From: a virus
Taxonomy: Duplodnaviria; Heunggongvirae; Uroviricota; Caudoviricetes
Virus record (IMG/VR): IMGVR_UViG_3300042889_001305
Reading direction: 5' to 3' (one strand)
DNA length: 64,000 nt
Below are positions 12,560-63,359 of the stretch, piece by piece; within the stretch, counting starts at the first letter, position 1; each line of letters begins with the position of its first letter. The translations under genes were made by a program, and so were the position numbers. Under the pieces are notes generated by a model that saw only the letters and a list, made by a program, of their open reading frames with translations, did no database searches and was not told the origin of the DNA.

Positions 12560-12563
12560 TAAA

Positions 12564-34997: not shown

Positions 34998-35729
34998 TTA
35001 TATTTGTAGGTATATATACTCTGAAAACTCCTTATTTCCATTGGGTGAAAGATGCCAATCTCCATTATTTAATTCAGAATCACAAGTCCACCCTTTATTT
35101 ATGGTTAATTCTCGTAAATTTGTTAAAGCCGGTTCAATATATTTCCTAATATTATCACCCATTAATTTATCCCATGATAATAATAATGTTGATATATTAT
35201 TTTTTTTATCATCAATACCTTTTAAAGTATAGTATGTTGATAAAATAGAATTTCGTTGTAAAAATATTTCATTTGATAATTTTTTATTGAATATATTACA
35301 AAAGGTAGTTAACTCCGCATCGTAATATGGATATTCTTCATTAAAGTTTCTATGAGGTGAAAACGGAACAATTGAATTCAGGTCATTTTTTTTTAAAATT
35401 GAATGCTGAAATGCTATTCTATTCCAATAGGTTAATTGAAAAATTATTAGTGAATCATCATATATTTCACGAGGTAATCTATCTCCATATAGTTCTATTT
35501 GCTTATCATTATTAGGATGCGGAAATTCTAATTTAGAATTTATACAATTTAAATAATATAAATTTTCAATGTTTGAACTACCATTTATTGAATAGTTGTA
35601 TACATTTTTAGCTGATATATTTAACTTATCCGCTAACAAATCTACATATGATTTGCAATTAGGGTCAATAGAATTGGTATTTAACGAATGAGAACACCCA
35701 AAAATATATAAATGTTTGTATTTATTCAC
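34998..35729 (-). CDS. Hypothetical protein, weakly SGNH/GDSL-hydrolase-like
   Basis: The N-terminal LYIFGCSHSLNT resembles GDSL block I with Asp replaced by Cys. GTG start. Low confidence. Confidence 0.35.
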   Translation of the reverse strand: MNKYKHLYIFGCSHSLNTNSIDPNCKSYVDLLADKLNISAKNVYNYSINGSSNIENLYYLNCINSKLEFPHPNNDKQIELYGDRLPREIYDDSLIIFQLTYWNRIAFQHSILKKNDLNSIVPFSPHRNFNEEYPYYDAELTTFCNIFNKKLSNEIFLQRNSILSTYYTLKGIDDKKNNISTLLLSWDKLMGDNIRKYIEPALTNLRELTINKGWTCDSELNNGDWHLSPNGNKEFSEYIYLQI

Positions 35730-46312: not shown

Positions 46313-46346
46313 AATTGAAAAAAAAGGAGATATTTCTATCTCCTTT
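46313..46346 (-). terminator. Rho-independent terminator downstream of the tail tube gene
   Basis: 9 bp stem aaggagata / tatctcctt with loop tttc. An A8-9 run precedes it on the plus strand, giving a U-run after the hairpin on the minus transcript. Confidence 0.65.
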
Positions 46347-46369
46347 CTTAATTTTATATTTTAATTCTA

Positions 46370-46858
46370 TTAGAATTCAAGTATTGCATAATCGTAAGCT
46401 AACGTTAATGTAATCTCTGCAGGGTCATTTGATGTCCAATCTAATTCACCAAATTGTGCGTTTAAGATAAATGCACCTTTAAGTTTCCAGTTTTCAATTT
46501 TATCACCTACTGGTCCTAACATATAGATATCAATATCTTTTTTGTAGAAATCTGCATATCCATCACGTCCTGTTAGGGATTCATGTGAAGTTCTAACCCA
46601 CTCCATTACTGCCTGTGCACCTGATGGTACGATTGGGTCATATAATGTGATTTCTAAATCTTGCCATTCACCTTTACCTTTCAACTTTCTTTTTAAGTTG
46701 ATGTGTTCTAATGTTACAGCTTCAAACTGAATGTTTGGTCTGTTACCTGCTTTGATAAGATATGAAGGGATACCAGCGATTTCCATGATGAAACGATTTT
46801 TCATCTTTGGTTCAAAGTTGGTATAGAACATTTCGTTAAACTCTAATATTTCTGCCAT
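46370..46858 (-). CDS. Tail tube protein, putative
   Basis: 162 aa, immediately downstream of the sheath gene. AGGAGAAAATAAAA precedes the ATG. Confidence 0.55.
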   Translation of the reverse strand: MAEILEFNEMFYTNFEPKMKNRFIMEIAGIPSYLIKAGNRPNIQFEAVTLEHINLKRKLKGKGEWQDLEITLYDPIVPSGAQAVMEWVRTSHESLTGRDGYADFYKKDIDIYMLGPVGDKIENWKLKGAFILNAQFGELDWTSNDPAEITLTLAYDYAILEF

Positions 46859-46912: not shown

Positions 46913-49312
46913 TTATGCTGAGAACGATGCTCCAGTCGGTAAGATGTTGAAATCTAACACGATGAATTCAGCGGTTTTTGTTGGTTGTAAGAAAATCTGT
47001 CCAGCCAATATATTTCTATCAATTACATCAGGAGTGTTATTACTCTCATCCATTACTACTCTAAATGCATATAAACCTTGTCTTTGTTGAATTGCTTCTA
47101 AATAAGGATTAACTGTATTTAAGAATCTTGAACGAGTGGTAGAAGTATTTTGTTCGAATACTAAGTATCTTGATGTAGAAGCGATATACTTCTTAACTTT
47201 GATAAGTAATCTTCTAACATTGATTCTATCTAACGCTGATGATTTTTCTTGTAATGTTTTCTGTCCAAATGCCACGATACCCTCGCCAGGGAAAGATGCG
47301 ATAGGATTTATTTTTCCTTCGTATAATGTATCTCTCTCTGCGTGTGTTAATCTATTCAATACTGAAACTGCTCCTACGATTCCACCACGATTTAAACCAG
47401 CTGGTGCGAACCATTCTGCTGCAACCGCATCATTTGCTGCGTAAATACCTGGCATCAATACTGATGGTGGTACTGCAGTTAATTTGTTAGTGTTTCTATC
47501 GATTGTCTTAACCCACGGGTAATAAGTACCTACATAGTTAGAATCTACTGCTGCACCTTGTGCAACTGCTTCATCAATTGTATCATTACCACCATCACAA
47601 CCAACTACATCACCAATGAAGAATACATCTTCACGATTCTCACACATTTCACTTATGTAATCAAATACATATGAGTGATGTCTACGAACTATACCTGGTG
47701 CTGCGATTAAGTTGATATCAAAATCATCAGGGTTAGATACTGCGTTGATTGCTTTTACATATGCAACCGAACCACTTGCAATTGATGTTGCTAAGTTAAA
47801 TCCTTGTGAATTACCTGCTGATATATCCACACCTTTGTTAATTGTTTTTGCTGGCGTTGTACCATCAAATCCACCTTGAAACGCTAAAGTAAATTGTCTT
47901 TTAGCAATTGTTTCGGCCGAATCATCAGTTGATAATGAATAACCAAAATTATATGTTCCAACCGAACCACTTACAATAGCAGTAATATCTGCATCAAATG
48001 TAAAATCAGTATTTCTACCAGTACTAAATTCAGTTCCCGGTAATGGTTTTAAATATTGTGTATTATTTATTTTTACTGCAGTAGTTTCTAAATCAATACC
48101 AGAGTATCTATATGCAGATGATGCTGTATTATTAACAGAACCCGTTGAATATATAACTGCAGGAACGATTGTTTCTATCGTTGCATCGATTGGATTGATG
48201 TATGCACCATGTCCAAAAGGTGCTGCTATGATAGGGAATGAACCTTCAGCTGCAACTTTTACTCTAACTAATTTAGAACGATTTGCGTAATCACCAGTTT
48301 CAGTTTGTTTACCATTTGCATCAATTGTTAATGTTCTATCACCAATTACTTTAGCAATATAGTTTGGAGATGCAGGGTCTAAGTTAACGTTATTATATGT
48401 TTCTTTTACTGATTTTTTTCTATCAGTATCACTAAATCCACGAACTACTATTGAGAATGTAGCGTAATCAGTTGCACCAGATACTCCTGCTGCTTTGACG
48501 TTAAAAATACTTATTTTATATTCGGTATTGTATGGATTACCATCACCTAATGTTTCAAATTTAAATAAATCGTGGCGTTGACCGCTAATTAATTGAGATT
48601 TAACCATTGGTGTTTCTGCGTATGTAATACCATTAGTATCAGCTCCAAATACTTGAGTTGGTAATTGAACTAATGAAATAGAACCAGAACCTGCAGATAA
48701 GTATGCACTTAAATCAGTAGCTGTTTTTTCAAAGTATGTATACACATATGCTTTTTTAGTTCCAAATGGAGATTCTCCAAATACATCACCAATATCATTT
48801 CCTTCTGAAGGGTCAATTGATGCTGAACCATTATATGCAATATTACTTCCACTAATTGTAAAATAACTATCAGTTGATGTCCCGTTTGCAAATACTATTG
48901 AACCAGTAGCAAATCCGGTTGATTCACTACCACTTAATGTAGCGTGTAATGTACCGATGATATGTTCACTACCACTTGCATATGTTCCTGTAGCAGAACC
49001 AGATTCTAATGTTACTTTAATACCAATTGGTGCTACTTGTGAATAACCACCTAAGTGACCAACACGAACAATTGTAACTGTTCCTGCTTCTCTTAGATAG
49101 TTTTGTACTGCGTACCCTGTATAGTATGTTCCATCAGGTGTACCGAATATTTCTTCAAATTCTGATTGTGTATTTACGATAGTTGGTAAGAATGCTGGTC
49201 CTTTACTAAAAGGTCCTACTATTGCTGCTCCAATTTCTCCGATACCCTGTGATAAAAATGATAAATCATTCTCTCTTGTGAATACACCAGGTGATACAAT
49301 TTTTTCTGCCAT
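46913..49312 (-). CDS. Contractile tail sheath protein
   Basis: The N-terminus MAEKIVSPGVFTRENDLSF is the typical sheath ...SPGVY/F.E.D.S start. I take the ATG at 49310-49312, which is preceded by AGGAGTAAATAAA. The track's GTG at 49348 adds 12 residues of doubtful coding. Confidence 0.8.
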   Translation of the reverse strand: MAEKIVSPGVFTRENDLSFLSQGIGEIGAAIVGPFSKGPAFLPTIVNTQSEFEEIFGTPDGTYYTGYAVQNYLREAGTVTIVRVGHLGGYSQVAPIGIKVTLESGSATGTYASGSEHIIGTLHATLSGSESTGFATGSIVFANGTSTDSYFTISGSNIAYNGSASIDPSEGNDIGDVFGESPFGTKKAYVYTYFEKTATDLSAYLSAGSGSISLVQLPTQVFGADTNGITYAETPMVKSQLISGQRHDLFKFETLGDGNPYNTEYKISIFNVKAAGVSGATDYATFSIVVRGFSDTDRKKSVKETYNNVNLDPASPNYIAKVIGDRTLTIDANGKQTETGDYANRSKLVRVKVAAEGSFPIIAAPFGHGAYINPIDATIETIVPAVIYSTGSVNNTASSAYRYSGIDLETTAVKINNTQYLKPLPGTEFSTGRNTDFTFDADITAIVSGSVGTYNFGYSLSTDDSAETIAKRQFTLAFQGGFDGTTPAKTINKGVDISAGNSQGFNLATSIASGSVAYVKAINAVSNPDDFDINLIAAPGIVRRHHSYVFDYISEMCENREDVFFIGDVVGCDGGNDTIDEAVAQGAAVDSNYVGTYYPWVKTIDRNTNKLTAVPPSVLMPGIYAANDAVAAEWFAPAGLNRGGIVGAVSVLNRLTHAERDTLYEGKINPIASFPGEGIVAFGQKTLQEKSSALDRINVRRLLIKVKKYIASTSRYLVFEQNTSTTRSRFLNTVNPYLEAIQQRQGLYAFRVVMDESNNTPDVIDRNILAGQIFLQPTKTAEFIVLDFNILPTGASFSA

Positions 49313-49404
49313 TTTATTTACTCCTATTAAGTTTGTGTAATGATACACATATAAGTATTAGATACTTTTTCTAAAATATTATTTTATATATGCGTAACGT
49401 AGTA

Positions 49405-49674
49405 TTATTCTGCGATTGGTGTGAATTCTCCCGTTGTAGGGTTGTAATCACCATCTCCGTATTTTTCATTTAATCCTTTAAATAAGGTTTCTTCCGTTAT
49501 AACTAAATCCGAATGTTGTTTAGTTAATTCTGCTTCTCTTTCTTCTAATTCTGACAATCTTCTTCTTTTTTCAATATGAATTTGTCCTAATTCAGTAAAA
49601 ACAGCCCCAACATCAATTCGTAATTTGTTAATTTGTGCGACTTCGTCTTCCGTAAACTTAATTTTTTCTGCCAT
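49405..49674 (-). CDS. Hypothetical small coiled-coil protein
   Basis: 89 aa, ATG start. Confidence 0.4.
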   Translation of the reverse strand: MAEKIKFTEDEVAQINKLRIDVGAVFTELGQIHIEKRRRLSELEEREAELTKQHSDLVITEETLFKGLNEKYGDGDYNPTTGEFTPIAE

Positions 49675-49743: not shown

Positions 49744-51021
49744 TTATCTAACAAATGAATAAGCAGATGTCCAAGCACCTTTAAGACCTTGGTCAATTGC
49801 TCTAACTCTAGCATACCACGTACCTGCAGTTAATAGGGTATTAACTTCAATAGTTGTAGTACTCCATTCCGTATTATCTACTATATTTGTAGCAAATGTA
49901 TTTCCAGATGATATTTGTATATCATATGCAGTAATACCAGCTGTTCCAACTGCAGTAGGTGCTACCCAACTTAAACTTGGAGATGCATATGCTAATGAGG
50001 TTGGTGCACCAGGAGCTCCTAAATCCGTAAATGCGTTACCACCTTTATTATGGGTAATATATCCATTTACTAAATAGGTATCTTCTGCTTCCACATCTAA
50101 TGATACGATTTCAGATGTTTCTTCATCAATTGTTATTGATGTTATATCTATTTCTTGTGTATTACCATTTTCAAATTTAATTAATTTATCATTAAGATTT
50201 AAATTAAACATTTGTTTAAATCTATATAAATTATCAGTAGAATCTTTAACTAATAATGGATGTTCTGATGTAGCAGTGATTTCACCATTATTAACATTGT
50301 AATATTTACCAGTAAATGAATATATTACATTCACAACTGTTACTTCTTTTTCAGTTTTATTTAATTCAGATGTAGACCAATCATAGAATGTGCCATCTGA
50401 ATCGATTGATAATCCACTTAAAGAAAATCCTTTTAATTTATCACCTTCTTCAATTTGGCCAACTTCCTTAATAGAACCATCAGCCATTGTTATTGGTGAA
50501 TCAGATGTTAAACATAATGCAACGGAGTTACCATCATAAGAATCTACGGAATAAACCGTCTTATCTCTAGAAGTATTATACCCAGTTGCGTGTGTATTAT
50601 ATCCATCTGCAAATATTGCTCTAATAGTATGAGTTTGAATTGTTTGTAGTACAGTCTGTGCACCTACCCCTTGTGGGTTCATTGATGATATACTAAAACT
50701 AGCGGTTGTACCACTATTTGTTCCTAATGTTATGAATGACCCAGCAGGAACACTCCATGTGAAGTTTGCTGCTCTACTACTAATTCTATCAAAATTTGCA
50801 CCAGCACCACTAAACCCTAATGTATAAGTTTCACTTGTAGATTCAACTCCGTATGTATAACCAGTTACTGAACCTACCGAATCAATTGCAAATGATGACA
50901 TTGAAATAGGACCGGTTGAATTTCCCTTTGCTGCTGATAATGCTCTTGGTCCTGCTGCAACACCTGTTGCTGCACCTAATGAATTTAAACTTTTGGTTTG
51001 TCCTGATGTTAATGTTGCCAT
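49744..51021 (-). CDS. Virion-associated protein with an internal Hint (intein/BIL-like) domain and a C-terminal fibronectin type III domain
   Basis: Residues about 170-325 read CLTSDSPITMADGSIKEVGQIEEGDKL (Hint block A), ATSEHPLLV (TxxH block B), and EIVSLDVEAEDTYLVNGYITHN (C-terminal HN). The C-terminal about 90 aa (PGAPTSL...TWYARVRAIDQGLKGAWTSAYSF) looks like FN3. Confidence 0.6.
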   Translation of the reverse strand: MATLTSGQTKSLNSLGAATGVAAGPRALSAAKGNSTGPISMSSFAIDSVGSVTGYTYGVESTSETYTLGFSGAGANFDRISSRAANFTWSVPAGSFITLGTNSGTTASFSISSMNPQGVGAQTVLQTIQTHTIRAIFADGYNTHATGYNTSRDKTVYSVDSYDGNSVALCLTSDSPITMADGSIKEVGQIEEGDKLKGFSLSGLSIDSDGTFYDWSTSELNKTEKEVTVVNVIYSFTGKYYNVNNGEITATSEHPLLVKDSTDNLYRFKQMFNLNLNDKLIKFENGNTQEIDITSITIDEETSEIVSLDVEAEDTYLVNGYITHNKGGNAFTDLGAPGAPTSLAYASPSLSWVAPTAVGTAGITAYDIQISSGNTFATNIVDNTEWSTTTIEVNTLLTAGTWYARVRAIDQGLKGAWTSAYSFVR

Positions 51022-51032: not shown

Positions 51033-52031
51033 CTATTTATTATAAATATCTAATAATGAATCAATCCACTTATTCTTATCTGTATATTTTTTAATCATAT
51101 AATTTTTTATAATATTAAACCAATATAATTTTTCAGAATAAGATAATGTAGTAATCTTTGTATAAATATCAAAAAATTCAGTTTTAGACGATGCTCGGTA
51201 TGGATATTCTAAATCTTTACACCAACTCGAATGTAGTATTGGTAATTTACCTTTATCAACCGCTTCAAATATTGAATATCCAAAGGGTTCTGATATAAAC
51301 GCAGAGTGTGATATACCCCAATCCATATCATAAAATGTATCTTTAAAATCTGGAGTATAATGATATAATTTTGATTTTGAAATATCTACTTTTACCCCAT
51401 TTTTCCAAAGTACATTAAATTCTTGAGAGTTAGTAAAAATAAGACTAGGAATTTTATCTAAATAGTGTGGATTTTTTCTACCTTCACTTCTTGCTGCAAA
51501 TCCTAACCTATTAGATTCGGATAGTGGTAAATTCCATTTAAATTCGTAAAAATTTGGTATATTAGTATTTTTATAAAGTATTTCGTATAATCCTACCCAT
51601 ATATTAGTTTCACACCAATCAGTAACCTCTTGTTCCCATTCTGAACTCATATAAGGATGATGTCCTATTGGTAAATCACTTCCAAATTGAGATTTTAGGA
51701 TGTGGTCTATTGAATTGTGTAATATATTTGAATGGATTTTATCTTTATTATCTACGATTGGTTTCATTGGAGTATAATGTCCATGTAGGATATTAATTCT
51801 TCGTGCACCTTTACATAGTTCTTCAAATTTTTGAATATCTTCACCATGCCAGTAAGTTTCTATTGGGAATTCGTAATCTTCGTGTCCTTTGGGTTTGTTT
51901 CTATGAATTAGTAGAATTGGTTTAATATCTAATTTAGGTGCTATTAATTCTATCCAAAGATTTACCCAAATATCAGAACCTGCATTGACCCACGGTCCAC
52001 CACCTGTGGTATAATAAACATCGTAAACCAT
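51033..52031 (-). CDS. GT-B fold glycosyltransferase, putative
   Basis: The C-terminal block AFISEPFGYSIFEAVDKGKLPIL matches the GT1/GT4 signature E-x-F-G-x4-E-A-x3-G-x-P-v-i. 332 aa. Confidence 0.5.
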   Translation of the reverse strand: MVYDVYYTTGGGPWVNAGSDIWVNLWIELIAPKLDIKPILLIHRNKPKGHEDYEFPIETYWHGEDIQKFEELCKGARRINILHGHYTPMKPIVDNKDKIHSNILHNSIDHILKSQFGSDLPIGHHPYMSSEWEQEVTDWCETNIWVGLYEILYKNTNIPNFYEFKWNLPLSESNRLGFAARSEGRKNPHYLDKIPSLIFTNSQEFNVLWKNGVKVDISKSKLYHYTPDFKDTFYDMDWGISHSAFISEPFGYSIFEAVDKGKLPILHSSWCKDLEYPYRASSKTEFFDIYTKITTLSYSEKLYWFNIIKNYMIKKYTDKNKWIDSLLDIYNK

Positions 52032-52036: not shown

Positions 52037-53911
52037 TTATTTTTTAATTATAATTAGTCCAGAAAATAATCCAGCAAAAGTTATAGTTAACGCATTAACT
52101 GAGGTTGATTCTATAATTGAGGGAACTTCTTGTCTTTTATTAGTAGTATTCCATGCTTGAACTATTGGATATTCTTCACCCAAACTATGAGTGATTGAAT
52201 AGGTTGAATTACCACTAACTGTTTCCTTATAGGTTGTTAATGCAGTTATTTGTGAAGACCCACTCACCAACCCACTTGGCGTTCCTGCTAAGTTATTCCA
52301 AGATGTAGAACCACTTACTATATGTCCACCTTTAGCAACTACTGCGTATCCACTTTGAGCGGATGATAATACTATTGTTGCAGTATTATTATTAGTAAGT
52401 GTTACCGATGATGGTATTATTTGTGAATCATTTGTTCCGTATACTGAAACTAATACATTTTTAGTATTAAAATTATGGGTTACCTCAATAGTTGATTGGG
52501 TATCAAACGAAGATGTGATTGTTGCAACTTCTGCAATTTCAGTTACTACGTTTGTAATACCACTACCATCCCCAACAAAGAACGATGCAGTGATTGCACC
52601 ATTTCCTAAATTAATTGATTGACTTACTAATGATGAAATGATTTGGGTAGAAGATGATACAATGTTGCTTCCACCTAATATTTGTATCGACCCGGATATT
52701 AATGTTGGTAATGAACTAATTTCACTAAAAGTAATTTGAGATGACCCTGATACAATATTATCACCACTAGCAAGTAGTATTTTAGATTCAGACCCACTTA
52801 CTCCGCTTTTCCAATAATCATTAGTCGAATCCCATAATAGAGAACCACTAATAATAGAAGCACCGGTTGAATCTTTAACTAATAAACCACCATTTGCTAC
52901 ACCACTACCATTCAATTCAATAATATTATCACCTAATTGAATTGTAGTTGAGTTTACGGAGGTGGTTGTTCCTCTAACGGTCAAATCACCTAAAACAATT
53001 ACATTCGAACCTGTCAACTCTAACGCAGTTTTAAGAGAGGATGTATATGTGTTTAAAGATGCAGTTGATTCTTGTATTCTATCTAACTCACTATCAATTG
53101 AAGCAGTATATGTTGCAAGGGTTGAGTTCTTAGTATCTTGTGATTGTGTATACGAATTTAATGAACTCAATATACTAACTATCTGAGATGAACCACTTAC
53201 TAATCCGCTTGGTTTATTTGTATGATTTGTATAATCTAAATAATATGAACCGGATTCGCCATTTAATTTATTTGAATCATCTGCAGAACCACTAACAATG
53301 TGGCCACCTTTAGCAACTACTGCATAACCACTTTGAGCGGAAGTTAATACTATTGTTGCAGTATTTAAATCCGTAAGAGTTACTGATGATGGGATTATTT
53401 GTGCATAATTAGAATCGTATACTGAAATGATTACATTTCGTGAATTAAAATTATGACTAACTGATATGTTTGAGGAATTAAAGAAAGCGTAATTAACAGT
53501 TGCTACTTGAGAGATATCGGATGCGGGTAGATTTGTTAATCCACTACCATCTCCTCCAAATGAACCAGTGAAAGAACCACTAATAGTTCCTTCACCTAAT
53601 GTATTTAAATATCTTGAATCTAATGAGGATGTTAATTGAGATGAACCGGAAACCATTCCAGTCCCACCGAAAGTTATTTGAGAACCATTTCCTATGAAAT
53701 TTGAAGCCGTTATAGCACCACCGATATTAATTGAACCAGAAATTAGGGCATCAGTAACAACTATTGATTGTATGGAAGGGACTCCGTTATCTTTTTCAAA
53801 ATACAACTTACCATCGTAAGTGTTTATCGCCAACTCTCCTAACTCAAGAGTGTCGGTTGTAGGTGATTTTCCCTGAACTGCCGTTCTTTTTAGCTTTAAT
53901 ACTTGTGCCAT
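52037..53911 (-). CDS. Tail fibre protein
   Basis: It shares an N-terminus (MAQVLKLKR...) with the other four fibre genes. Internal duplications (YAVVAKGGHIVSGS twice). It also carries the shared module IQLGDNIIELNGSG..LLVKD..SGSLLWDSTNDYWKSG. Confidence 0.7.
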   Translation of the reverse strand: MAQVLKLKRTAVQGKSPTTDTLELGELAINTYDGKLYFEKDNGVPSIQSIVVTDALISGSINIGGAITASNFIGNGSQITFGGTGMVSGSSQLTSSLDSRYLNTLGEGTISGSFTGSFGGDGSGLTNLPASDISQVATVNYAFFNSSNISVSHNFNSRNVIISVYDSNYAQIIPSSVTLTDLNTATIVLTSAQSGYAVVAKGGHIVSGSADDSNKLNGESGSYYLDYTNHTNKPSGLVSGSSQIVSILSSLNSYTQSQDTKNSTLATYTASIDSELDRIQESTASLNTYTSSLKTALELTGSNVIVLGDLTVRGTTTSVNSTTIQLGDNIIELNGSGVANGGLLVKDSTGASIISGSLLWDSTNDYWKSGVSGSESKILLASGDNIVSGSSQITFSEISSLPTLISGSIQILGGSNIVSSSTQIISSLVSQSINLGNGAITASFFVGDGSGITNVVTEIAEVATITSSFDTQSTIEVTHNFNTKNVLVSVYGTNDSQIIPSSVTLTNNNTATIVLSSAQSGYAVVAKGGHIVSGSTSWNNLAGTPSGLVSGSSQITALTTYKETVSGNSTYSITHSLGEEYPIVQAWNTTNKRQEVPSIIESTSVNALTITFAGLFSGLIIIKK

Positions 53912-53977
53912 ATGTATGACTTAATAATTTCATTATATAATTATTTAACTAGAAACTCCTTATATAAGAAGTTTTGA

Positions 53978-53999
53978 ACTATAACCCGTGTGGGTTATA
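53978..53999. repeat. Perfect 9 bp hairpin (ctataaccc-gtgt-gggttatag) at the 3' end of fibre gene 53995-55605
   Basis: The inverted repeat is visible in the sequence and overlaps the stop codon region. No clean U-run follows on the minus strand. Confidence 0.4.
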
Positions 54000-55605
54000 G
54001 TCCAGTTTCTAATTTATTAATTTTGTTTGATAAATCTTCGATTTGCTTTTGTTGTTCTTTTATACCTTCGATTAATAGAGCAACTAATTTGTCATATTTA
54101 ACCGCTTTATATCCATTATCACGAGTTACAACTAACTGTGGTAATACTTCTTCAATTTCTTGTGCGATTACACCGACATCGTTTCCTTCAAATCCATGTA
54201 TATCTTTATTTTCTGCTTTCCAATCGTATGTGTTACCACTAATCATTTTGATTTTTTCGATTGGAGATTGAATTGTTGTAATATTTTCTTTGAAACGAAT
54301 ATCTGAAGCAGAGAATGCTGTAATATCACCCGTTGCAGTTATTGCTCCGTTAATTGTTAAACCTGCGAAAGTTGGGGATGATGAAGTTAAAACTGCTTGG
54401 TTTAATACTGAACCATATCCTGTTGTAGATGATAGAGTTACTTGAGATGAACCACTAACCACACCAGTTGGTAAAATTGCAGTGACACTACCTGCGGTTA
54501 CTGTTCCTATTGTTGTAATAGAATCATCACCACTATATGTTCCACCCGCAACAGCTGCCAATGTAGCGTTATATGCTTGAACATCTGAACCGATTGCTAC
54601 TCCTAAGTTAGTTCTAGCAGTACCTGTATTTGTTAAATCTGATAAATTTGATGACTTTGATAATTTACCATCTACTAAAGTATTTAAAGTAGAATCACCA
54701 CTTGCAAGTGATGCAGAAATTTCTAATAAAGTATCAAACGCTGCACTAGCACCACCGATTAAATCAGTTAATTCTTGTTGAACGTATGCAGTAGTAGCAA
54801 TTTGAGTTGAATTTGTATTTACTGCAGCAGTTGGTGCTATTGGAGTACCTGTAAATTCAGGAGAAGTAAACATTGTTGCTTTACTTTCATTTGTTACGTT
54901 TCCTAAACTAACATGAGTAGCAGTTACACCACTAACAGTTCCAGTAAATGTAGGAGAAGTAAACATTGTTGCTTTACTTTCATTTGTTACGTTTCCTAAT
55001 GATAAGAAAGTTTTAACATTTGAAGCCGAACCACTTACTACTGCTAATGAATTGTTATATGCTAAAACATTTTCATCAAAATTAGTAATCGAATCTGCGT
55101 TTACTTGTGAACTACCACTAACAACGCCAGTTGGTAATGTTGAAGTAAGTTGTGCAGAACCAGAGATTACACCGGTTGGTAACAATTCAGTTACTTGAGT
55201 AGAACCACTTACAATTCCAGCTGGGATTGAAGAGATACTAGCATAAGTTATTTGAGATGACCCACTAACCAATCCTCTACCCTTTGTTTCATAAGATGAA
55301 GTTGCAGAGTTTAAGTTTGAAAGTTGTGTATCAACTGATGCGGTATAAACTGCAAGAGTTGAGTTCTTAGTTTCTAACGATGATGTATACGATTCAATTA
55401 AATCTAATCTAGCATCTTGAGAGCCAGTATCAATATTTAATTGTTGAATTTTAGTTTCTAATGATGCAGAAAAAGTCTTAGGGTCTCCCAAACCTGCAAC
55501 TGAACCACTAAACGAACCACTATATATACCATTATCTGGTAAGGTGAATGTTGCACCATTTGCAAAGGTTAGTGAACCTGAAATTATGGGACTATGTATT
55601 ATCAT
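53995..55605 (-). CDS. Tail fibre protein with a C-terminal intramolecular chaperone (peptidase S74-like) domain
   Basis: The C-terminus SASDIRFKENITTIQSPIEKI...YDWK...GVIAQEIEEVLPQLV...YKAVKYDKLVALLIEGIKEQQKQIEDL carries the SDxRxKxNI autocleavage motif. The N-terminus is repeat-rich (S/T/G). Confidence 0.7.
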   Translation of the reverse strand: MIIHSPIISGSLTFANGATFTLPDNGIYSGSFSGSVAGLGDPKTFSASLETKIQQLNIDTGSQDARLDLIESYTSSLETKNSTLAVYTASVDTQLSNLNSATSSYETKGRGLVSGSSQITYASISSIPAGIVSGSTQVTELLPTGVISGSAQLTSTLPTGVVSGSSQVNADSITNFDENVLAYNNSLAVVSGSASNVKTFLSLGNVTNESKATMFTSPTFTGTVSGVTATHVSLGNVTNESKATMFTSPEFTGTPIAPTAAVNTNSTQIATTAYVQQELTDLIGGASAAFDTLLEISASLASGDSTLNTLVDGKLSKSSNLSDLTNTGTARTNLGVAIGSDVQAYNATLAAVAGGTYSGDDSITTIGTVTAGSVTAILPTGVVSGSSQVTLSSTTGYGSVLNQAVLTSSSPTFAGLTINGAITATGDITAFSASDIRFKENITTIQSPIEKIKMISGNTYDWKAENKDIHGFEGNDVGVIAQEIEEVLPQLVVTRDNGYKAVKYDKLVALLIEGIKEQQKQIEDLSNKINKLETGL

Positions 55606-55651
55606 CGCTTTTGATTTTTTTTTATTTTATTTACTAATAAATATATTTTTT

Positions 55652-56296
55652 TTAAATTGAACCGCCATCTATACTAGATATTGTTGTTGCATTTGCTGTT
55701 CCTGTCACATCTCCGCTCAATGTTATTTGAGCCGAACCACTAAATAAACCAAGTACATTTACTTGATTTGTTACTGAAGCATCAAAACCTATAATTTTAC
55801 TCGAATCAATCGAACCACTAAGAATATGACCACCTTTTGCTACAACTACATAACCACTTCTAGCGGATTCGAATGTAATTGTTATAGTATTATCGTCAGT
55901 ATGTCTTAATGTTGATGGGATTATTTGATATCCTTCTGCATCAAACACTTGTGCTATTGCATTGGGAGTATTCAAATTATGGTTAACTACCCAACTTGAT
56001 GAAGCAGTAAAAGAACGTTGAACTGTTGCTGCTTGTGCAACTGTTATATTTTCTAACCCACTACCATCACCTTTAAAAAATGATGCGGTAATTGAACCTG
56101 TTATATTAAGGTTACCAGCAATGGCAGTTGAAGTATTAGTTGTTACTAATGATTCTATCGAATCTACTGAACCTGACTTTCTAAAAAATACCTTACCATC
56201 GGTAACGTTCATTGCTATTTCACCATATTGTAGTGAACCAGTTTCAGGTATTGCTCCAGCGGTCGTTGACCTTTTGAATTTAATAATTTGTGCCAT
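55652..56296 (-). CDS. Short tail fibre protein
   Basis: It shares the N-terminus MAQIIKFKR with the other fibres. 214 aa. Its start overlaps the stop of the 1295 aa fibre by 1 nt. Confidence 0.6.
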   Translation of the reverse strand: MAQIIKFKRSTTAGAIPETGSLQYGEIAMNVTDGKVFFRKSGSVDSIESLVTTNTSTAIAGNLNITGSITASFFKGDGSGLENITVAQAATVQRSFTASSSWVVNHNLNTPNAIAQVFDAEGYQIIPSTLRHTDDNTITITFESARSGYVVVAKGGHILSGSIDSSKIIGFDASVTNQVNVLGLFSGSAQITLSGDVTGTANATTISSIDGGSI

Positions 56297-59200
56297 TAAT
56301 TTTCTATTTTGGTTTTTAAATATTCCACTTGTTTGGTTAATTCCTTAATACCTTCAATTAAAACGGATACTAATTTATCATATTTAACTGCTTTGTAACC
56401 ATTTTCTCTTGTTTGTACTAATTCTGGGAATACTTCTTCAATTTCTTGAGCGATTACTCCGTAATCTTTACCACTATAAATAGATTGCAACTCATCATTC
56501 CATTCAAACTCACAGCCATTAATTTTAGAAATCTTTTCTAATGGGGATTCGATTGGTTTGATATTATTTTTTAATCTAATATCTGATGATGCAAAAGCAA
56601 CAATATCACCACCTGCATTGATACCACCACTTACCCCTATACCACCTGTTACGATAAATGCACCAGTTGTTTTATCAGTCGATGCGGTAGCATTTGAAAT
56701 GGTAATTGCATTTGTTGTAGATGCACCGGTATCAGTTATTTGTTGTAATGTTCTTGTTACTTGTGATGAACCTGAAATTACTCCATCAACATCTAATTTA
56801 GCTTTAACGTTTGAATCAAAGTTTGTAATTGAATCAGCATCTACTTGAGATGAACCTGAAACTACTCCGCTTGGTAACAATAATATAATTTGTGAACTTC
56901 CACTAACTACTCCCGAAGGTAGTGTTGCGGTAAGTTGCGATGAACCCGATATTACTCCGTTTGTAGCGTTTATTACTCCATTAAATGAAGTTGCAATTAC
57001 ATCACCTATTGTTGTAAGTGAACCTGTTATTTGAACTGAACCTGTAAATTCATGTGTATCATTTCCAAAATCACCAAACCTATTAGAGCCACTACTGAAT
57101 ATAACCGATGCAGTTTCACTAATTGTTGTTAAATTAACAATAGTTAAATCCGTAATAGTTGTTCCACTTAATTGAGATGAACCAGAAATTATTCCGGCTG
57201 GGATTGATGAAATATCTGCGTATATTATTTGAGAACTACCACTAACAATTCCTGCTGGAATAGAACTAATGTTTGCATATGTTATTTGAGAACTTCCACT
57301 TACCAACCCACTTCCACCAAATATTTGAGAACTTCCACTAACAATTCCTCTACCATTTGTTTCGTAAGATGAAGTTGCACTATTTAAATTTGATATATGA
57401 GAATCAATCGAAGCTGTATAAATAGCAAGAGTTGAATTCTTTGTATCTTGTGAAGATGTATATGAATTTAATGAGGTTAATGGAATTAATCTAGCATCAA
57501 CACCATTTGTGAAATGTGTAGAACCAGTATTTAATGTAAGAGTTACATCACCTGATAATCCTCCTCCACCTAAACCATCACCTGCACTTACCGATAAAAT
57601 GTCTGCAACAGCTGCTGCAGCTAAAAGTTCTTCGGTTCTCCAATCTATATATTTTTTTGTTGCTCCTGCAGTGAGTAAATGATTATTTGTATAATTAATA
57701 CTTCCACTTACTAATACTACATCAACCGATGATGTTACATTATAAAATGCGGCTGAACCTAATGATACTAACGGATTTGCACCCAATAAAGTAGCAAAAG
57801 ATGCCGATGGTGCATATCTTAAATCATATGAACCAGTCAATTGTTGTGAACCACTAACTACACCAGTTGGTAATAATGATGGTATCTGTGAAGAACCACT
57901 AACTATGCCCGCCGGAATTGATGATAATGATGTGTATACTACTTGAGATGAACCACTTACTACTCCATTTGTTGCGTTGATTTCGCCGATGATTGAACCA
58001 GTAAATCCTGCTGATGCACTTACTGCACCTGTTACATTTAACGAAGAACCAACAAATACACCATTTACACCAACAATAGAAACTGTTTGTGCACTATCAT
58101 CTATTTTTAAGTAATTGGTATCGTCACCAAAGTAGTTGAAATCTGTATTACCTTTAAAGTGAATATCATTACCCGAAGGTGCAGCAGTATTATAAATTTG
58201 AAAATATCTTGCATCATTAACATCAGGTTGTAAAAATATATTTCCAATACCTTTAATTTCATTAGTTACTATTAAAGAAGAACTTATTATTTGCTCACCT
58301 TTAAATGTATTTGAACCGGTTGTTGCAAATGAACCAGTTAAATTTTGTAATGTTAAATTCTTAGTATCTAAACTTGATGTATAATTTCCTAAAGTTAAGT
58401 TCTTAGTATCTTGTGAAGATGTGTAAGAATTTAATGATGAAGTTGATTCGTGTATTCTAGCTAAATCTAAATCAATTGAAGCAGTATAATTTCCTAAAGT
58501 TGAATTCTTAGTATCTTGTGAAGATGTGTATGAATTTAATGATTTTATTCTATCATCAACTGATTGTGAATATGTTGAAAAATTAGTTACATCATTTAAA
58601 TTTATTTGAATTGATGATGATATAACACCTTCTACATTTAATCTTGTTTTAATACCACTTACATAATTTGTAGTTGATGTTAAATCAATCTGTGATGAAC
58701 CAGAAACTACACTATCACCTTCAGCTAAAAGTATTTTAGATTCAGCACCTAATTTACCACTTTTCCAATAATCATTAACCGAATCCCAAAGTAAAGAACC
58801 TGATATCGTTGATACTGCAGTTGGGTCTTTAACTAATAAACCACCATTTGCTGCTCCCGTACCATTTAATTCGATAATGTTATCACCTAATTGAATTGTA
58901 TTTGAATCTAATGTAGTTTGTGTTCCTTTAACAACTAAGTTTCCTAAAATTGTTACAGATGAACCAGTTAATTCAATTGCATTTTTTAATGATTGAGTAT
59001 ATGATAAAACTGATGCGGTTACATTTAATAATGTTTCCCATTTAGTATCAATTGAAGCAGTATAAATTGCTAAAGTTGAATTCTTAATTGATTGAGACCA
59101 TAAAGTATCATCAACCGAACTACTTTTTAGTTCTAAATTATTTAATCTACCATTAACACTTTCAGTATAAATTCCAAGTGTTGAATTCTTAGTATCTTGT

Positions 59201-60183
59201 GATTGCGTATAAGAATTTAATGAAGCCGTTGCTGATAAAATCGATGAGGTTACATTTAATAATGTTTCCCATTTCGTATCAATCGAACCAGTATAAATTG
59301 CAAGAGTACTATTTTTAGTATCTTGTGATTGTGTATAAGAATTTAATGATGATGTTGCAGATAAAATTGATGCGGTTACATTTAATAATGTTTCCCATTT
59401 AGTATCAATTGAAGCCGTATAATTTGCAAGAGTACTATTTTTAGTATCTTGTGATTGCGTATAAGAATTTAATGAAGCAGTTGCAGATAAAATTGATGCG
59501 GTTACATTTAATAATGTTTCCCATTTAGTATCAATTGAAGCCGTATAAAGTTCTAAACTTGCAGTATAATTTCCTAAAGTTGAATTTTTAGTATCTTGTG
59601 AAGATGTGTAAGAATTTAGTGATGCGGTTGCTGATAAAATCGATGAGGTTACATTTAATAATGTTTCCCATTTAGTATCAATTGAACCAGTATAATTTGC
59701 TAAAGTTAAATTTTTATCATTAATACTTCCAGTATAAGTTGCAAATGATGTATTGGATGATGATAAAATACCACTTCCTGGTACGGATATATTATCTATT
59801 GATGCAGAAACTGCATATAAATTTTTCCATTTACGAGTATCACTACCTAAATCGTATTGATTTGATGCAGAAGGTATTAATGAACCACTCACTTGTGCAG
59901 TAACGATTATATTATCACTACCACTATCACCTAAATAAATATTTCCACTTAATCTTACATCTCTTGCGGTTAAATCACCACTTAAAAGGATATTAGAAGC
60001 AGAAATATCACCAACTAAATTTATGTTACCATATGCGGGTGCACCTAATGGTAATAATGTATATGTACTTGAACCACTTCCAAATTGGATTGAACCCGAA
60101 CTTTGATGTAAATATAATTCACTCTCATCTAATGATGGAGATGCATTAGATGTACCTCTTCGTAATTGTAATATTGCAGCCAT
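56296..60183 (-). CDS. Large tail fibre protein with tandem 42-aa repeats and a C-terminal S74 intramolecular chaperone domain
   Basis: Repeats of SQDTKNSTLANYTASIDTKWETLLNVTASILSATASLNSYTQ. The shared LLVKD..SGSLLWDSVNDYWKSG module is present. The C-terminus has ASSDIRLKNNIKPIESPLEKI...GVIAQEIEEVFPELV...YKAVKYDKLVSVLIEGIKEL. Confidence 0.75.
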   Translation of the reverse strand: MAAILQLRRGTSNASPSLDESELYLHQSSGSIQFGSGSSTYTLLPLGAPAYGNINLVGDISASNILLSGDLTARDVRLSGNIYLGDSGSDNIIVTAQVSGSLIPSASNQYDLGSDTRKWKNLYAVSASIDNISVPGSGILSSSNTSFATYTGSINDKNLTLANYTGSIDTKWETLLNVTSSILSATASLNSYTSSQDTKNSTLGNYTASLELYTASIDTKWETLLNVTASILSATASLNSYTQSQDTKNSTLANYTASIDTKWETLLNVTASILSATSSLNSYTQSQDTKNSTLAIYTGSIDTKWETLLNVTSSILSATASLNSYTQSQDTKNSTLGIYTESVNGRLNNLELKSSSVDDTLWSQSIKNSTLAIYTASIDTKWETLLNVTASVLSYTQSLKNAIELTGSSVTILGNLVVKGTQTTLDSNTIQLGDNIIELNGTGAANGGLLVKDPTAVSTISGSLLWDSVNDYWKSGKLGAESKILLAEGDSVVSGSSQIDLTSTTNYVSGIKTRLNVEGVISSSIQINLNDVTNFSTYSQSVDDRIKSLNSYTSSQDTKNSTLGNYTASIDLDLARIHESTSSLNSYTSSQDTKNLTLGNYTSSLDTKNLTLQNLTGSFATTGSNTFKGEQIISSSLIVTNEIKGIGNIFLQPDVNDARYFQIYNTAAPSGNDIHFKGNTDFNYFGDDTNYLKIDDSAQTVSIVGVNGVFVGSSLNVTGAVSASAGFTGSIIGEINATNGVVSGSSQVVYTSLSSIPAGIVSGSSQIPSLLPTGVVSGSQQLTGSYDLRYAPSASFATLLGANPLVSLGSAAFYNVTSSVDVVLVSGSINYTNNHLLTAGATKKYIDWRTEELLAAAAVADILSVSAGDGLGGGGLSGDVTLTLNTGSTHFTNGVDARLIPLTSLNSYTSSQDTKNSTLAIYTASIDSHISNLNSATSSYETNGRGIVSGSSQIFGGSGLVSGSSQITYANISSIPAGIVSGSSQIIYADISSIPAGIISGSSQLSGTTITDLTIVNLTTISETASVIFSSGSNRFGDFGNDTHEFTGSVQITGSLTTIGDVIATSFNGVINATNGVISGSSQLTATLPSGVVSGSSQIILLLPSGVVSGSSQVDADSITNFDSNVKAKLDVDGVISGSSQVTRTLQQITDTGASTTNAITISNATASTDKTTGAFIVTGGIGVSGGINAGGDIVAFASSDIRLKNNIKPIESPLEKISKINGCEFEWNDELQSIYSGKDYGVIAQEIEEVFPELVQTRENGYKAVKYDKLVSVLIEGIKELTKQVEYLKTKIEN
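58960..59720. repeat. Coding tandem repeats (about 120-126 bp unit, 5-6 copies) inside the 1295 aa fibre gene
   Basis: The near-identical block tgatgcggttacatttaataatgtttcccatttagtatcaattgaag recurs at about 59011, 59251, 59372, 59492 and 59641. Confidence 0.7.
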
Positions 60184-60290
60184 TAATTGAAATTTCCTAT
60201 TTTATTTCCTATAAATATAGATATTTAATAAAATGTAAGTAAGATATAATAGTTATACCACCTATATAAGTATTGAAAAATAAAAAGATA

Positions 60291-60328
60291 AAAAAAATCC
60301 CCCACTATTGTGAGGGATTTTGATTTTT
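60291..60328 (-). terminator. Rho-independent terminator between the 1005 aa and 1295 aa fibre genes
   Basis: Stem atcccccac / gtgagggat (one mismatch) with loop tattg. An A8 run precedes it on the plus strand, giving a U8 run after the hairpin on the minus transcript. Confidence 0.6.
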
Positions 60329-60341
60329 TATTTATTCCGTA

Positions 60342-63300: not shown

Positions 63301-63359
63301 TTTGTAGCACTTGATACGGATTCTAACGAACCCCTCCTATGTTTAATTATTTGTGCCAT
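60342..63359 (-). CDS. Tail fibre protein (1005 aa) with repeated DADSITNFDENVKAKLDADGVISGS units and two copies of the shared LLVKD..SGSLLWD module
   Basis: The N-terminus MAQIIKHRR is shared with the other fibres. It has a repetitive S/G/T-rich beta architecture. Confidence 0.7.
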   Translation of the reverse strand: MAQIIKHRRGSLESVSSATKRAGELLVVTGSAGITATNGNSILFVGIDGSTVTPANKILQGTATPDLTGATYDTSIDGIPFYNTSTEKLFIVNKGGNVEVKATANTGGTGIVSGSGQVAALLPTGTISSSAQVDADSITNFDENVKAKLDADGVISGSAGIIPLLPTGTVSGSSQISYVSISSIPAGIVSGSSQVTFSEISSLPTLVSGSSQIDADSITNFDSNVKSKLDADGVISGSAGIIPLLPTGTVSGSSQVDADSITNFDENVKAKLDADGVVSGSSQVVGILSALNTFSSSQESKDSTLATYTASVDTSLSAINSYTSSLRAAFTASGADVTFSGNVTIPGNFTVAGTQTIVDSTTVQIGDNIIELNGSAAANGGLYVKDATAPNTATGSLLWDTTNDYWKAGVKDSEIKILLAGGDSVVSGSSQITISSTTGFTDYSSSVATAISASTAAATWENLNGKPGGIVSGSAQVVANLSGSNVNLAGISGSSLNITGNAKIDGNLTLGGNITIGDATTDTVSFAADLTSDIIPSGSNVRSLGSDTRLFANVYATNVYGAINATNGIVSGSSQILGGSGLFSSSAQVNADSITNFDENVKAKLDAETVVSGSSQITYANISSIPAGIVSGSSQLDSTTINLATLTNVSASGSFSGSHFGTFSGDGSNLTGIASTLAFSGSTGNDTLNLKTEALLVTGSNSISAAVTGNTITITADNASTSAKGVASFSSTNFDVTSGNVAIKANGVTAATLNADVAGTGLSLDGGDNSLKVDYGSTSGTAVEGNTSLTVQGTANEIEITGGSVTLGSGGTVTIGLPDNVTVSGSFTANGDVFLGNSTADSVTIAGNLYVQGTTTTVDSTTVQIGDNIIELNGSGAANGGLLVKDVTNPNTASGSLLWDSTSDYWKAGALGSEKELARFSATPTSGSVQVVGASGLFVNSQISDDAVKVTIGTDLVITGLTANSFVVSNGSKKLISVTPSNAGDLIQWNGSSFIASNELDGGTF

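Follow-up and report, generated by a model that had tools for sequence, protein, structure and literature searches.

Phage glycosyltransferases and Hint proteins described so far

As summarised in PMC12619734, mycobacteriophages carry glycans on capsid and tail-tube subunits. C-terminal extensions of these proteins are where the glycans are attached. The glycosyltransferases (GTs) responsible are coded by the phages themselves, as is the enzyme described here, which in addition is located inside a structural gene block. The likeness rests on role and not on homology. The mycobacteriophages are actinobacterial siphoviruses, glycans on their structural proteins are documented, and no Hint partner is described for their GTs.

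Bacteriophage T4 codes for the DNA glucosyltransferases AGT (CAZy GT72) and BGT (GT63), whose substrate is hydroxymethylcytosine in DNA. Both are phage-encoded GT-B enzymes of similar size to the one studied here, but T4 b-gt adjoins gene 42 and a-gt adjoins gene 47, whereas the present gene is next to fibre and sheath genes. Large marine myoviruses have big host-recognition islands with GTs among the fibre genes, and these GTs are usually dismissed as host O-antigen modifiers. Modification of host glycans is the published reading for the host-recognition clusters of pelagimyophages and cyanophages (PMC7029224, PMC7824862), with the host O-chain as the target in pelagimyophages (PMC7029224).

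Hedgehog, BIL, and Tetrahymena BUBL proteins have a Hint fold with an invariant Cys1, a TxxH motif, and a terminal HN, and Hedgehog and BIL proteins are arranged as cargo followed by Hint. The protein coded next to the GT shares all these features. It differs from them in being part of a phage fibre module and persistently linked to a GT gene, and full-text literature searches revealed no description of such a GT-Hint link.

Fold, donor site, and family of the glycosyltransferase

The window, i.e., the whole stretch of 64,000 nt of viral DNA that was analysed, codes on the minus strand for a protein of 332 aa with an ATG start (51033-52031). The gene is real, as 648 homologous clusters at 90% identity were found and the family alignment is conserved. 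In this alignment of 67 sequences, the mean column identity is 42% and 27 columns are invariant, including R181, E183, R185, K186, H242, E248-Y252, D259, G261, and P264.

The AlphaFold2 (AF2) model of the protein (pLDDT 93.6, pTM 0.90) has alternating strands and helices in two blocks and terminal helices at residues 283-331. According to the model and the fold search, there are two Rossmann-like domains with a cleft between them, and a C-terminal helix crosses back, as in GT-B enzymes. Foldseek against PDB recognized 89 chains at E<=1e-3, and the best 50 of these 89 are almost all glycosyltransferases. The top matches are GT4/GT5 enzymes with E values of 1e-8 to 1e-5 and TM scores of 0.6-0.7, namely tll1591, PglH, GlgM, HepE, MshA, BshA, PimA, WaaG, and glycogen synthase. 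In BFVD, viral GT1-family glycosyltransferases were matched. The fold was confirmed by structure prediction and fold search only; no sequence method showed it. Searches of Pfam, PHROG, and NCBIfam, as well as of PDB with phmmer and with a profile of 67 sequences, revealed no recognised family; nitrophorin and SarX, the sole matches, were rejected as chance matches. The 67 members had zero matches to Pfam GT models even at E 0.05, and sequence profiles did not place the family in CAZy GT4 or Pfam Glycos_transf_1 (PF00534), with hhalign E values of 0.11 for WaaG and 0.04 for WaaB.

Three elements of a putative donor site, all on the minus strand, were located from the position of motifs, from the secondary structure, and from hhalign alignments of weak significance (E 0.04-0.11) rather than from model coordinates. 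The N-terminal Gly-rich loop T9-G10-G11-G12 (51996-52007) follows Rossmann strand beta1 (YDVYY); in the AF2 model, a strand at residues 3-8 is followed by a helix at 18-29. Of the 67 sequences, 66 have T9 and G10, and there is little or no variation at G18, D20, and W22. The loop R181-S-E183-G-R185-K186 (51474-51491), after beta1 of the C-terminal domain, contains the predicted diphosphate-binding Arg/Lys residues. Its R181, E183, R185, and K186 are invariant (67/67), and hhalign placed the EGRK of the loop opposite EGQK of WaaB, a GT4 enzyme of E. coli, although with a weak E value of 0.04. The EX7E-type nucleotide-sugar motif ISEPFGYSIFEAVDKGKLPIL (aa 246-266; 51234-51296) spans E248-x7-E256 and is invariant at E248, P249, F250, G251, Y252, D259, G261, and P264. 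At position 256, the second Glu of the motif, 39 of the 67 sequences have Q and the other 28 have E. E248 and E256 are in register with E281 and E289 of WaaG, at an E value of 0.11 that is non-significant alone.

The protein resembles the retaining GT4/GT5 enzymes (Glycos_transf_1 / Glyco_transf_4) in its two-Rossmann fold, in the Gly-rich loop after beta1, in the Arg/Lys pair after beta1 of the C-terminal domain, and in the pattern E-x-F-G-x4-E/Q-A-x-D-x-G-x-P, which aligns with the EX7E of WaaG. It differs in being only 9-14% identical to its structural neighbours, and its family differs in having Gln as the second Glu in 58% of members, in being compact (312-400 aa), in occurring essentially on phage contigs only, and in the lack of a GT Pfam match among the 67 members. 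The predicted structure supports the ORF as a nucleotide-sugar glycosyltransferase of the GT-B fold whose donor motif is of the EX7E type. Its mechanism is probably retaining, as its nearest structural neighbours are retaining enzymes.

The first-pass annotation had delimited exactly this ORF, placed it between fibre and virion genes, and called it a GT-B enzyme with an EX7E-type signature in a C-terminal block. The ORF and its surroundings were as described, the motif block is real, and the fold call is borne out by the high-confidence model and the fold search, together with the WaaG register. In the 67-sequence alignment, the residues predicted for the donor site are invariant or nearly so, apart from position 256. 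The isoelectric point of the protein is 6.3, that of T4 AGT 6.1, and that of T4 BGT 9.1, so DNA glucosyltransferases cannot be told from other GTs by this value.

The family of 648 clusters is represented by at least 580 IMG/VR loci and is essentially confined to aquatic phage contigs; it seems to occur essentially only in large aquatic phages. These IMG/VR scans were based on alignments, as the single proteins P0214 and P0166 retrieved almost nothing. When 1.84 billion cluster representatives were scanned in full with HMMER, only 157 matches were obtained, mostly short fragments, and among the matches listed none was longer than 400 aa except one fusion to a GT-A domain. In 185,579 species genomes of cellular organisms, only four matches were found, each on a short MAG contig. 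No cultured isolate carrying the gene was found. Microcystis phage Mel-JY01 is the closest cultured relative, with a tail sheath 47% identical to that of the window, and it has neither the GT nor the Hint gene upstream of the sheath gene. The family is abundant, yet it is missed by Pfam, PHROGs, and NCBIfam and is therefore annotated as hypothetical everywhere.

Gene block and the adjacent Hint protein

The GT gene is located in a block of structural genes, all on the minus strand, with fibre genes upstream and sheath and tube genes downstream according to PHROG matches. Directly upstream is a Ser/Thr/Gly-rich fibre-like protein of 624 aa (52037-53911; phrog_16122 virion structural protein, phrog_21918), with 17% Ser and six [VI]SGS[SAT] motifs. 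Its stop codon is 5 nt from the GT start, and its homologue directly precedes the GT gene in 60 of the 80 close relatives. Further upstream, two tail fibres are coded. One of 536 aa (53995-55605) has a C-terminal fibre-tip region and an SDIRFKEN motif and matches 32 PHROG tail-fibre families (best E 1.8e-36). The other of 1295 aa (56296-60183) has PHROG tail-fibre matches down to 1.1e-42 and eleven [VI]SGS[SAT] motifs. Downstream of the GT gene are the Hint protein (49744-51021), a conserved protein of 89 aa designated as p89 (49405-49674), the tail sheath (46913-49348; phrog_23, E 9.1e-73), and the tail tube (46370-46858; phrog_4542, E 3e-30).

Strong terminator-like hairpins are found at both ends of this block, and they could be its transcriptional boundaries: one upstream of the fibres (60294-60321; 12-bp stem, then T-run) and one after the tail tube (46320-46349; 13-bp stem, then T-run). 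A simple terminator scan gave no strong terminator between 60294 and 46349. The T4 late-promoter motif TATAAATA is present in 21 copies against 16 expected and is not enriched; therefore, the timing of expression cannot be read from promoters. Gene spacing and the terminator scan suggest that the GT is expressed late together with the tail-fibre, Hint, sheath, and tube genes.

The order fibre, GT, Hint protein, p89, and tail sheath is kept in 80 of 80 close relatives, with variable fibre genes. Besides these 80 relatives, p89 is also present in L006 and Mel-JY01. In the lineage of the window, the GT gene is a single, fixed component of the core block of fibre, Hint, and sheath genes, co-oriented with its putative targets, and other glycan genes are absent nearby. 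Across the family, a Hint ORF lies within 400 bp of the GT gene, on either side, in 14 of 19 subfamilies (119 of 151 unique proteins). The fixed gene order and this GT-Hint pairing are new findings.

The Hint protein has 425 aa and consists of an Ig-like cargo domain (aa 1-169; 50515-51021), a Hint/bacterial-intein-like domain (aa 170-325; 50047-50514), and an FN3 domain (aa 326-425; 49744-50046). It matches TIGR01445 intein_Nterm above the cut-off (28.4 bits), and its homologues carry PF07591 PT-HINT and PF00041 fn3. AF2 and Foldseek matched it to BIL2 (6tmm), BIL (2lwy, TMt 0.75), Hedgehog (1at0, TMt 0.72), and also 1mi8. The N-terminal Cys (C170), the block-B TxxH (T251-x-x-H254), and the C-terminal HN (H324-N325) are invariant. 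HN is followed by Lys instead of Cys, Ser, or Thr, which makes canonical splicing unlikely. The persistent pairing of this Hedgehog-like protein with the GT suggests that tail or fibre maturation includes a so far undescribed step of protein processing.

Possible acceptors of the enzyme

Taken as a whole, the evidence is best explained if the GT glycosylates a virion or fibre-associated protein, and we give this explanation about an even chance. The evidence for a protein target is guilt by association throughout, and the acceptor is putative. The target emphasized in the first-pass annotation was DNA. In that case, the enzyme would glycosylate 5-hydroxymethyl pyrimidines of the phage DNA like the T4 alpha- and beta-GT, on a substrate supplied by a TS-like hydroxymethylase coded at 10634-11332. 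Such an acceptor may exist, since the best solved relative of this TS-superfamily protein is the CMP 5-hydroxymethylase MilA (E 4.6e-4, catalytic Cys aligned), and a hydroxymethylase-like gene is also a feature shared with T4. The window codes in addition for a DUF1599 'nucleotide modification associated' protein. T4 AGT and BGT are in the PDB fold list of the GT (E about 5e-5), and a 'DNA alpha-GT' of cyanophage S-TIM5 is sixth in the BFVD list. However, in this fold list, GT4/GT5 enzymes were best and AGT (1y6g) and BGT (1c3j) ranked 42 and 46, below about 40 GT4/GT5 chains. No profile similarity was revealed by hhalign to BGT (E 0.6) or AGT (E 0.66), and these alignments are uninformative. 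The TS-like gene is 40 kb away and clusters with genes for modification enzymes of other kinds (amidotransferase, PLP-like, and methylase-like), while the GT gene lies within a structural block. Among 247 loci, the GT gene adjoins a hydroxymethylase or nucleotide-metabolism gene in none; its neighbours are fibre, Hint, methyltransferase, and GT-A genes. The 484-kb phage LR756508 has the GT-Hint pair and no TS-like homologue at E<=1e-3. Neither sequence similarity to BGT/AGT, nor a closest structural neighbour among them, nor linkage to hydroxymethylase or DNA-metabolism genes was found, and a DNA glucosyltransferase is very unlikely. A hydroxymethylase-like gene in the genome alone does not make a phage GT-B enzyme a DNA glucosyltransferase. 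So the fold and motif proposed in the first-pass annotation stand, its DNA target is unsupported, and its fallback of fibre or host-glycan modification is the direction favoured by the evidence, with fibre or virion ranked above host glycan.

Modification of the host envelope is the main rival to a virion-protein role, but it seems rather unlikely. The enzyme would add sugar to a lipid-linked or LPS/capsule acceptor of the host during infection, and the altered cell surface would exclude superinfecting phages or keep progeny off debris. Besides the published reading of pelagimyophage and cyanophage GTs, it is favoured by the closest structural neighbours, WaaG, PimA, and PglH, which are GT4 enzymes acting on LPS core, lipid-linked, or small acceptors, and by distant relatives located among sugar-nucleotide genes (UDP-glucose dehydrogenase, CTP_transf_3). 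Against it, the GT of the window lineage is the sole glycan gene in the fibre-Hint-sheath block, and GTs of the family pair with a Hint autoprocessing protein and with protein modifiers (SET, RimK-like, SPASM radical-SAM). The four homologues from cellular assemblies, being on short MAG contigs, place none in a confirmed cellular polysaccharide locus, and the late expression suggested by gene order would be a poor time for envelope remodelling. The protein could also have a GT-B fold without catalysis and serve as a fibre or Hint assembly factor or chaperone, or as a lectin-like binder of sugar-nucleotides or glycans. Its constant position amid structural and assembly genes and the lack of a detectable sequence link to catalytic GT families would fit such a protein. 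This is very unlikely, however, as invariant residues occupy the expected GT-B donor-loop positions (from secondary structure and weak hhalign), a GT-A catalytic domain occurs as a fusion in one family protein, and glycan-synthesis enzymes are neighbours of its relatives.

On the favoured explanation, the GT is a soluble enzyme with two Rossmann domains and a donor site like that of retaining GT4/GT5 enzymes. In this site, R181/K186 would bind the diphosphate, accompanied by the Gly-rich loop that follows beta1 and by His83 behind beta4, and E248 of EPFGY together with E/Q256 would contact the sugar and ribose. The NDP-sugar would be made by the host, because the window encodes no sugar-nucleotide pathway. 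Expressed late together with the structural and Hint genes around it, the enzyme would glycosylate a phage-encoded protein of the virion surface. The likeliest acceptor would be the Ig-like cargo that the neighbouring Hint protein sets free by autoprocessing; alternatively, the Ser-rich fibres would be modified. Five of the 19 subfamilies have no Hint neighbour, and therefore the Hint protein cannot be a universal acceptor. With its fixed place between fibre and sheath genes, this GT-B enzyme is a concrete candidate for virion glycosylation in aquatic phages, which, if true, would bear on receptor recognition, particle stickiness, and grazing or immune-like recognition.

More speculatively, the GT and the cargo-Hint protein may form a two-gene system of virion decoration. 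Hint would make a C-terminal thioester on the cargo, as in Hedgehog and Tetrahymena BUBL, and the cargo would then be joined to a hydroxyl of the GT-made sugar or glycan or, once glycosylated by the GT, to a lysine of fibre or sheath. This is improbable on present analysis; if true, the phage tail would bear a glyco-decoration that is attached covalently and without an enzyme. To our knowledge, no glycan-resolved or glycan-coupled Hint reaction has been described.

In more distant relatives, the GT gene is located in islands of GT-A, radical-SAM, SET, RimK-like, and methyltransferase genes just past giant fibre genes. The GTs there adjoin GT7N/7C-LamG fusions, GT2, a GT32-like gene, UDP-glucose dehydrogenase, and cytidylyltransferases (CTP_transf_3), and P0268, which belongs to the family, is a fusion with a GT2/GT7C GT-A domain. 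Protein-modifying families nearby are SET, RimK-like, 2OG oxygenase, and SPASM radical-SAM. In these phages, the same enzyme may start or extend a more elaborate protein-linked glycan, which the neighbouring GT-A (GT7-LamG, GT2), methyltransferase, and radical-SAM enzymes would build further. In the Hint-less L002 lineage, a poly-Thr Ig-like protein is coded close upstream of the GT gene, with one ORF between them.

The glycosyltransferase family and its predicted fold

The glycosyltransferase (GT) gene at 51033..52031 on the minus strand starts with ATG and has 332 codons. In the first-pass annotation it was called a GT-B enzyme lying between tail-fibre and virion genes; the ORF, the peptide quoted for it, ISEPFGYSIFEAVDKGKLPIL (residues 246-266, with Glu248 and Glu256 in EX7E spacing), and the flanking genes are all as described there. 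Its relatives form 648 clusters among 5.8 billion proteins, none of them named and none with a Pfam domain, and the alignment of 67 family members (mutual identity of 80% or less) has 27 invariant columns and a mean column identity of 42%, which clearly marks the ORF as a conserved gene. Searches of Pfam, PHROGs, NCBIfam, and PDB sequences gave no meaningful match, be the query the single protein, the family profile, or the 67 members one by one. An exhaustive HMMER scan of 1.84 billion representatives recovered no more than 157 related clusters, none of which links the GT to a named family. Among cellular genomes, 185,579 prokaryotic species genomes gave four matches only; each is on a short MAG contig from a Pelagibacter or Flavobacteriales bin, and the family is effectively restricted to phages. 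The sole deposited phage genome with a homologue, among about 50,000, is the 484-kb uncultured phage LR756508 (35% identity). This sizeable phage-only GT-B family, missed by all standard annotation resources, is new here, while its fold and its chemistry belong to a known type. In the 584-aa metagenome protein P0268, the family domain (aa 63-327) is naturally fused to a C-terminal GT2/GT7C GT-A catalytic domain.

The AlphaFold2 model computed from the 67-sequence alignment has a mean pLDDT of 93.6 and pTM of 0.90, with no segment below 50, and its strands and helices alternate in two blocks. Foldseek returned 89 PDB chains at E≤1e-3 and, among the matches listed, nearly all are glycosyltransferases. 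The best ones are of GT4/GT5 type (E 1e-8 to 1e-5, TM 0.6-0.7) and include tll1591, PglH, GlgM, HepE, MshA, BshA, SenB, PimA, WaaG, glycogen synthase, and sucrose-phosphate synthase. Model and matches support the GT-B call. Predicted viral structures agree, as the GT matches phage and giant-virus proteins labelled 'glycosyl transferase family 1'.

Conserved residues include T9 and G10 of the Gly-rich loop that follows strand 1 (66 of 67 sequences), D20 (66 of 67), H83 after strand 4 (64 of 67), and the invariant G18 and W22. Also invariant are R181, E183, R185, and K186, all within the loop that comes after the C-terminal domain's first strand, as well as H242, E248-P-F-G-Y252, D259, G261, and P264. 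The EX7E signature proposed earlier holds for its first Glu, E248; position 256 is Gln in 39 and Glu in 28 of the 67 sequences, and the second Glu is thus not strictly kept. In GT-B enzymes, Gln is able to form the same ribose hydrogen bonds as this second Glu. In hhalign, the family profile aligned HSAFISEPFGYSIFEAVDKGKLPIL to LLHPAYQEAAGIVLLEAITAGLPVL of E. coli WaaG (GT4), with E248 and E256 on the EX7E of WaaG (statistically weak, E 0.11), and EGRK of the family stood opposite EGQK of WaaB (also weak, E 0.04). These sequence alignments may be taken as faint corroboration of the fold result. The donor site looks intact, the active-site geometry being a predicted one.

Gene context and the Hint partner

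Upstream of the GT on the minus strand are Ser/Thr/Gly-rich proteins with many PHROG tail-fibre matches (52037-53911, 53995-55605, 55652-56296, and 56296-60183). Downstream on the same strand are a 425-aa protein with a Hint autoprocessing domain (49744-51021), an 89-aa protein (49405..49674), tail sheath (phrog_23, E 9e-73), and tail tube. The gene for the 624-aa fibre stops only 5 nt before the GT start codon, and 11 nt separate the GT stop from the Hint gene start. Between 46 and 64 kb, the minus strand has strong terminator-like hairpins only at 60321-60294 and 46349-46320, and these enclose the run of genes that begins with the 1295-aa fibre, passes through GT, Hint, and sheath, and ends with the tube. 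From the short gaps and the hairpins, co-transcription of the GT with late structural genes is likely. No enrichment of the T4 late-promoter motif was found. The fibres contain 14-17% Ser and 6-13 copies of the motif [VI]SGS[SAT], typically (V/I)SGSSQ(I/V), with 6, 6, 11, and 13 per protein (52037-63359, minus strand). Tandem coiled-coil-like units of about 40 aa, 'SLNSYTSSQDTKNSTL..YT.SID', were also seen in them. Two fibre proteins end in SDIR(F/L)K, which may resemble the site at which a self-cleaving chaperone domain of fibres is cut.

The 425-aa protein consists of an Ig-like N-terminal domain, a Hint/bacterial-intein-like (BIL) domain, and a C-terminal FN3 domain. The TIGR01445 score exceeds the cut-off of that model, and PF07591 is present in homologues. 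Foldseek matched the Hint domain to BIL2 of Tetrahymena BUBL, mini-inteins, a C. thermocellum BIL domain (TMt 0.75), and the Hedgehog autoprocessing domain (TMt 0.72). Invariant in this protein family are Cys170, Thr251-x-x-His254, and His324-Asn325, and the residue after the latter is Lys in all members, which favours cleavage or thioester chemistry over canonical splicing. In distant loci, Hint modules are joined to other cargo domains, for example in L004 (11069-13519, 816 aa) and L007 (1375-2901, with DUF642).

The gene context across relatives is the most informative result. In IMG/VR, the order GT, Hint protein, 89-aa protein, sheath is kept in all 80 close relatives; the upstream gene varies, being usually the 624-aa fibre and sometimes another ORF. 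A wider census of 247 loci gave 151 unique GT proteins in 19 clusters at 60% identity; 14 of the clusters (119 proteins) have a Hint-domain ORF no more than 400 bp away from the GT, whether before or after it. The linkage persists although the Hint-fused cargo domains differ and the wider context changes. This conserved coupling to a Hedgehog/BIL-type autoprocessing protein is new here, and full-text searches on phage glycosyltransferases with Hint or fibres turned up no description of it.

The other five clusters have no Hint ORF within 6 kb. They have a giant fibre-like ORF directly upstream of the GT, a methyltransferase-like gene downstream, and two or three downstream ORFs that are GT7-like by N-terminal sequence motif only, the comparison set being GT7-type genes identified with Pfam in related loci. 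In the Hint-less L002 lineage, DxD-motif ORFs and a GT2 follow the GT. Close upstream, with one ORF in between, a 386-aa protein (L002 7777-8937) that has several poly-Thr tracts as well as a Bact_surface_Ig-like domain is a candidate substrate for mucin-like O-glycosylation. The jumbo phage contig IMGVR_UViG_3300012347_000377 (288,673 bp) carries two GT paralogues about 50 kb apart: one is Hint-linked and adjoins the sheath gene, and the other is Hint-less in an island with methyltransferase-like and GT7-like ORFs. Islands of distant phages contain glycan-related genes (GT7N/7C-LamG fusions, UDP-glucose dehydrogenase, cytidylyltransferases) and protein- or peptide-modifying ones (radical-SAM/SPASM, B12-radical-SAM, methyltransferases, SET domain, RimK-like ATP-grasp, 2OG oxygenases). 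In locus L091, a 2OG oxygenase different from that of the window is directly upstream of the GT homologue. In L004, from a relative of the 484-kb phage, the surroundings of the GT-Hint pair include a weakly Mom-like ORF, a gene of GT32-like type (Gb3_synth), and a protein of 1009 aa, one segment of which is cytidylyltransferase-like (features at 3364-4038, 10322-11062, and 13756-16785), the region being directly downstream of Mre11/Rad50-like genes.

Possible acceptors of the sugar

The GT gene is part of the fibre-to-sheath block, with a persistent link to the cargo-Hint protein and to genes for glycan and protein modification, and glycosylation of virion proteins is the favoured role, given about an even chance. 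The enzyme would use a host NDP-sugar, as no sugar-nucleotide gene was identified in the 64-kb window, and would glycosylate a phage-encoded surface protein. Candidate acceptors are the cargo domain of the Hint protein and the Ser-rich fibres with their [VI]SGS[SAT] motifs. Glycans on structural proteins of mycobacteriophages, as summarised in PMC12619734, are a precedent. The first-pass annotation had left fibre and host-glycan modification as equal alternatives to a DNA role, and gene context now favours the virion side. The main rival, already proposed in print for the islands of pelagimyophages and cyanophages (PMC7029224; PMC7824862), is that such enzymes modify the O-chain or capsule of the host; this reading is rated lower because the GT is associated with Hint and protein-modifier genes, is a fixed single gene within the core structural block, and lacks cellular homologues beyond the four MAG-contig matches. 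A two-gene covalent decoration system, in which a Hint thioester would be resolved onto, or after, the GT-made glycan, is improbable.

The DNA glucosyltransferase role towards which the first-pass annotation leaned, acting on hydroxymethyl-pyrimidine DNA, is the least probable of these readings and very unlikely. Such DNA is plausible for this phage from sequence matches: the hydroxymethylase candidate named earlier is a diverged TS-superfamily protein (10634-11332, minus strand), with CMP 5-hydroxymethylase MilA as its best solved relative (E 4.6e-4, catalytic Cys aligned), and a 156-aa ORF (25089-25559, minus strand) matches DUF1599, 'Nucleotide modification associated domain 1' (27.3 bits, above cut-off). 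The latter adjoins a ResIII-type helicase (23395-25017). However, none of the results connects the GT with such DNA. The T4 alpha- and beta-glucosyltransferases rank only 42 and 46 among the fold matches listed, behind GT4/GT5-type enzymes, and hhalign gave E 0.66 and 0.6, respectively. Their genes sit in a DNA-metabolism setting (b-gt adjoins gene 42, a-gt gene 47), whereas the GT is in the fibre-to-sheath block, 40 kb from the TS-like gene, and is beside nucleotide-metabolism genes in none of the 247 loci. In LR756508, the GT-Hint pair is present, but a homologue of the TS-like protein was not found. The TS-like gene itself is clustered with a glutamine amidotransferase of asparagine-synthase type (8699-10204), an ORF weakly resembling PLP enzymes (7869-8708), and two long proteins with an N6_N4_Mtase-like segment at the C terminus only (2220-3854 and 11339-12667), all on the minus strand, which suggests a different, non-glycosyl hypermodification. 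This possible hypermodification cluster (2220-13796, minus strand) is interleaved with PolB, RNR, and thioredoxin genes; a full DNA methylase (17514-18620) is counted with it. ORFs 11339-12667 and 12564-13796 (minus strand) overlap by about 100 nt, and the TTG start assigned to the former is probably too far upstream, or the overlap is programmed.

Phage lineage and other genes of the window

In sheath and family-B DNA polymerase, the phage shares 47-51% identity with Microcystis phage Mel-JY01, which has no GT gene, and T4-like cyanophages are more distant relatives. IMG/VR contigs with near-identical GT copies reach 238-289 kb. Together these place the window in an uncultured aquatic jumbo myovirus lineage. 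Endonuclease_NS (non-specific DNA/RNA endonuclease, E 4e-36) and SPFH/Band-7 genes (29094-29759 and 31529-32440, minus strand) lie between the replication and structural modules. A PhyH-type 2OG-Fe(II) dioxygenase (35722-36498, minus strand) is inside the putative baseplate/structural region, and protein hydroxylation in virion components is a possibility.
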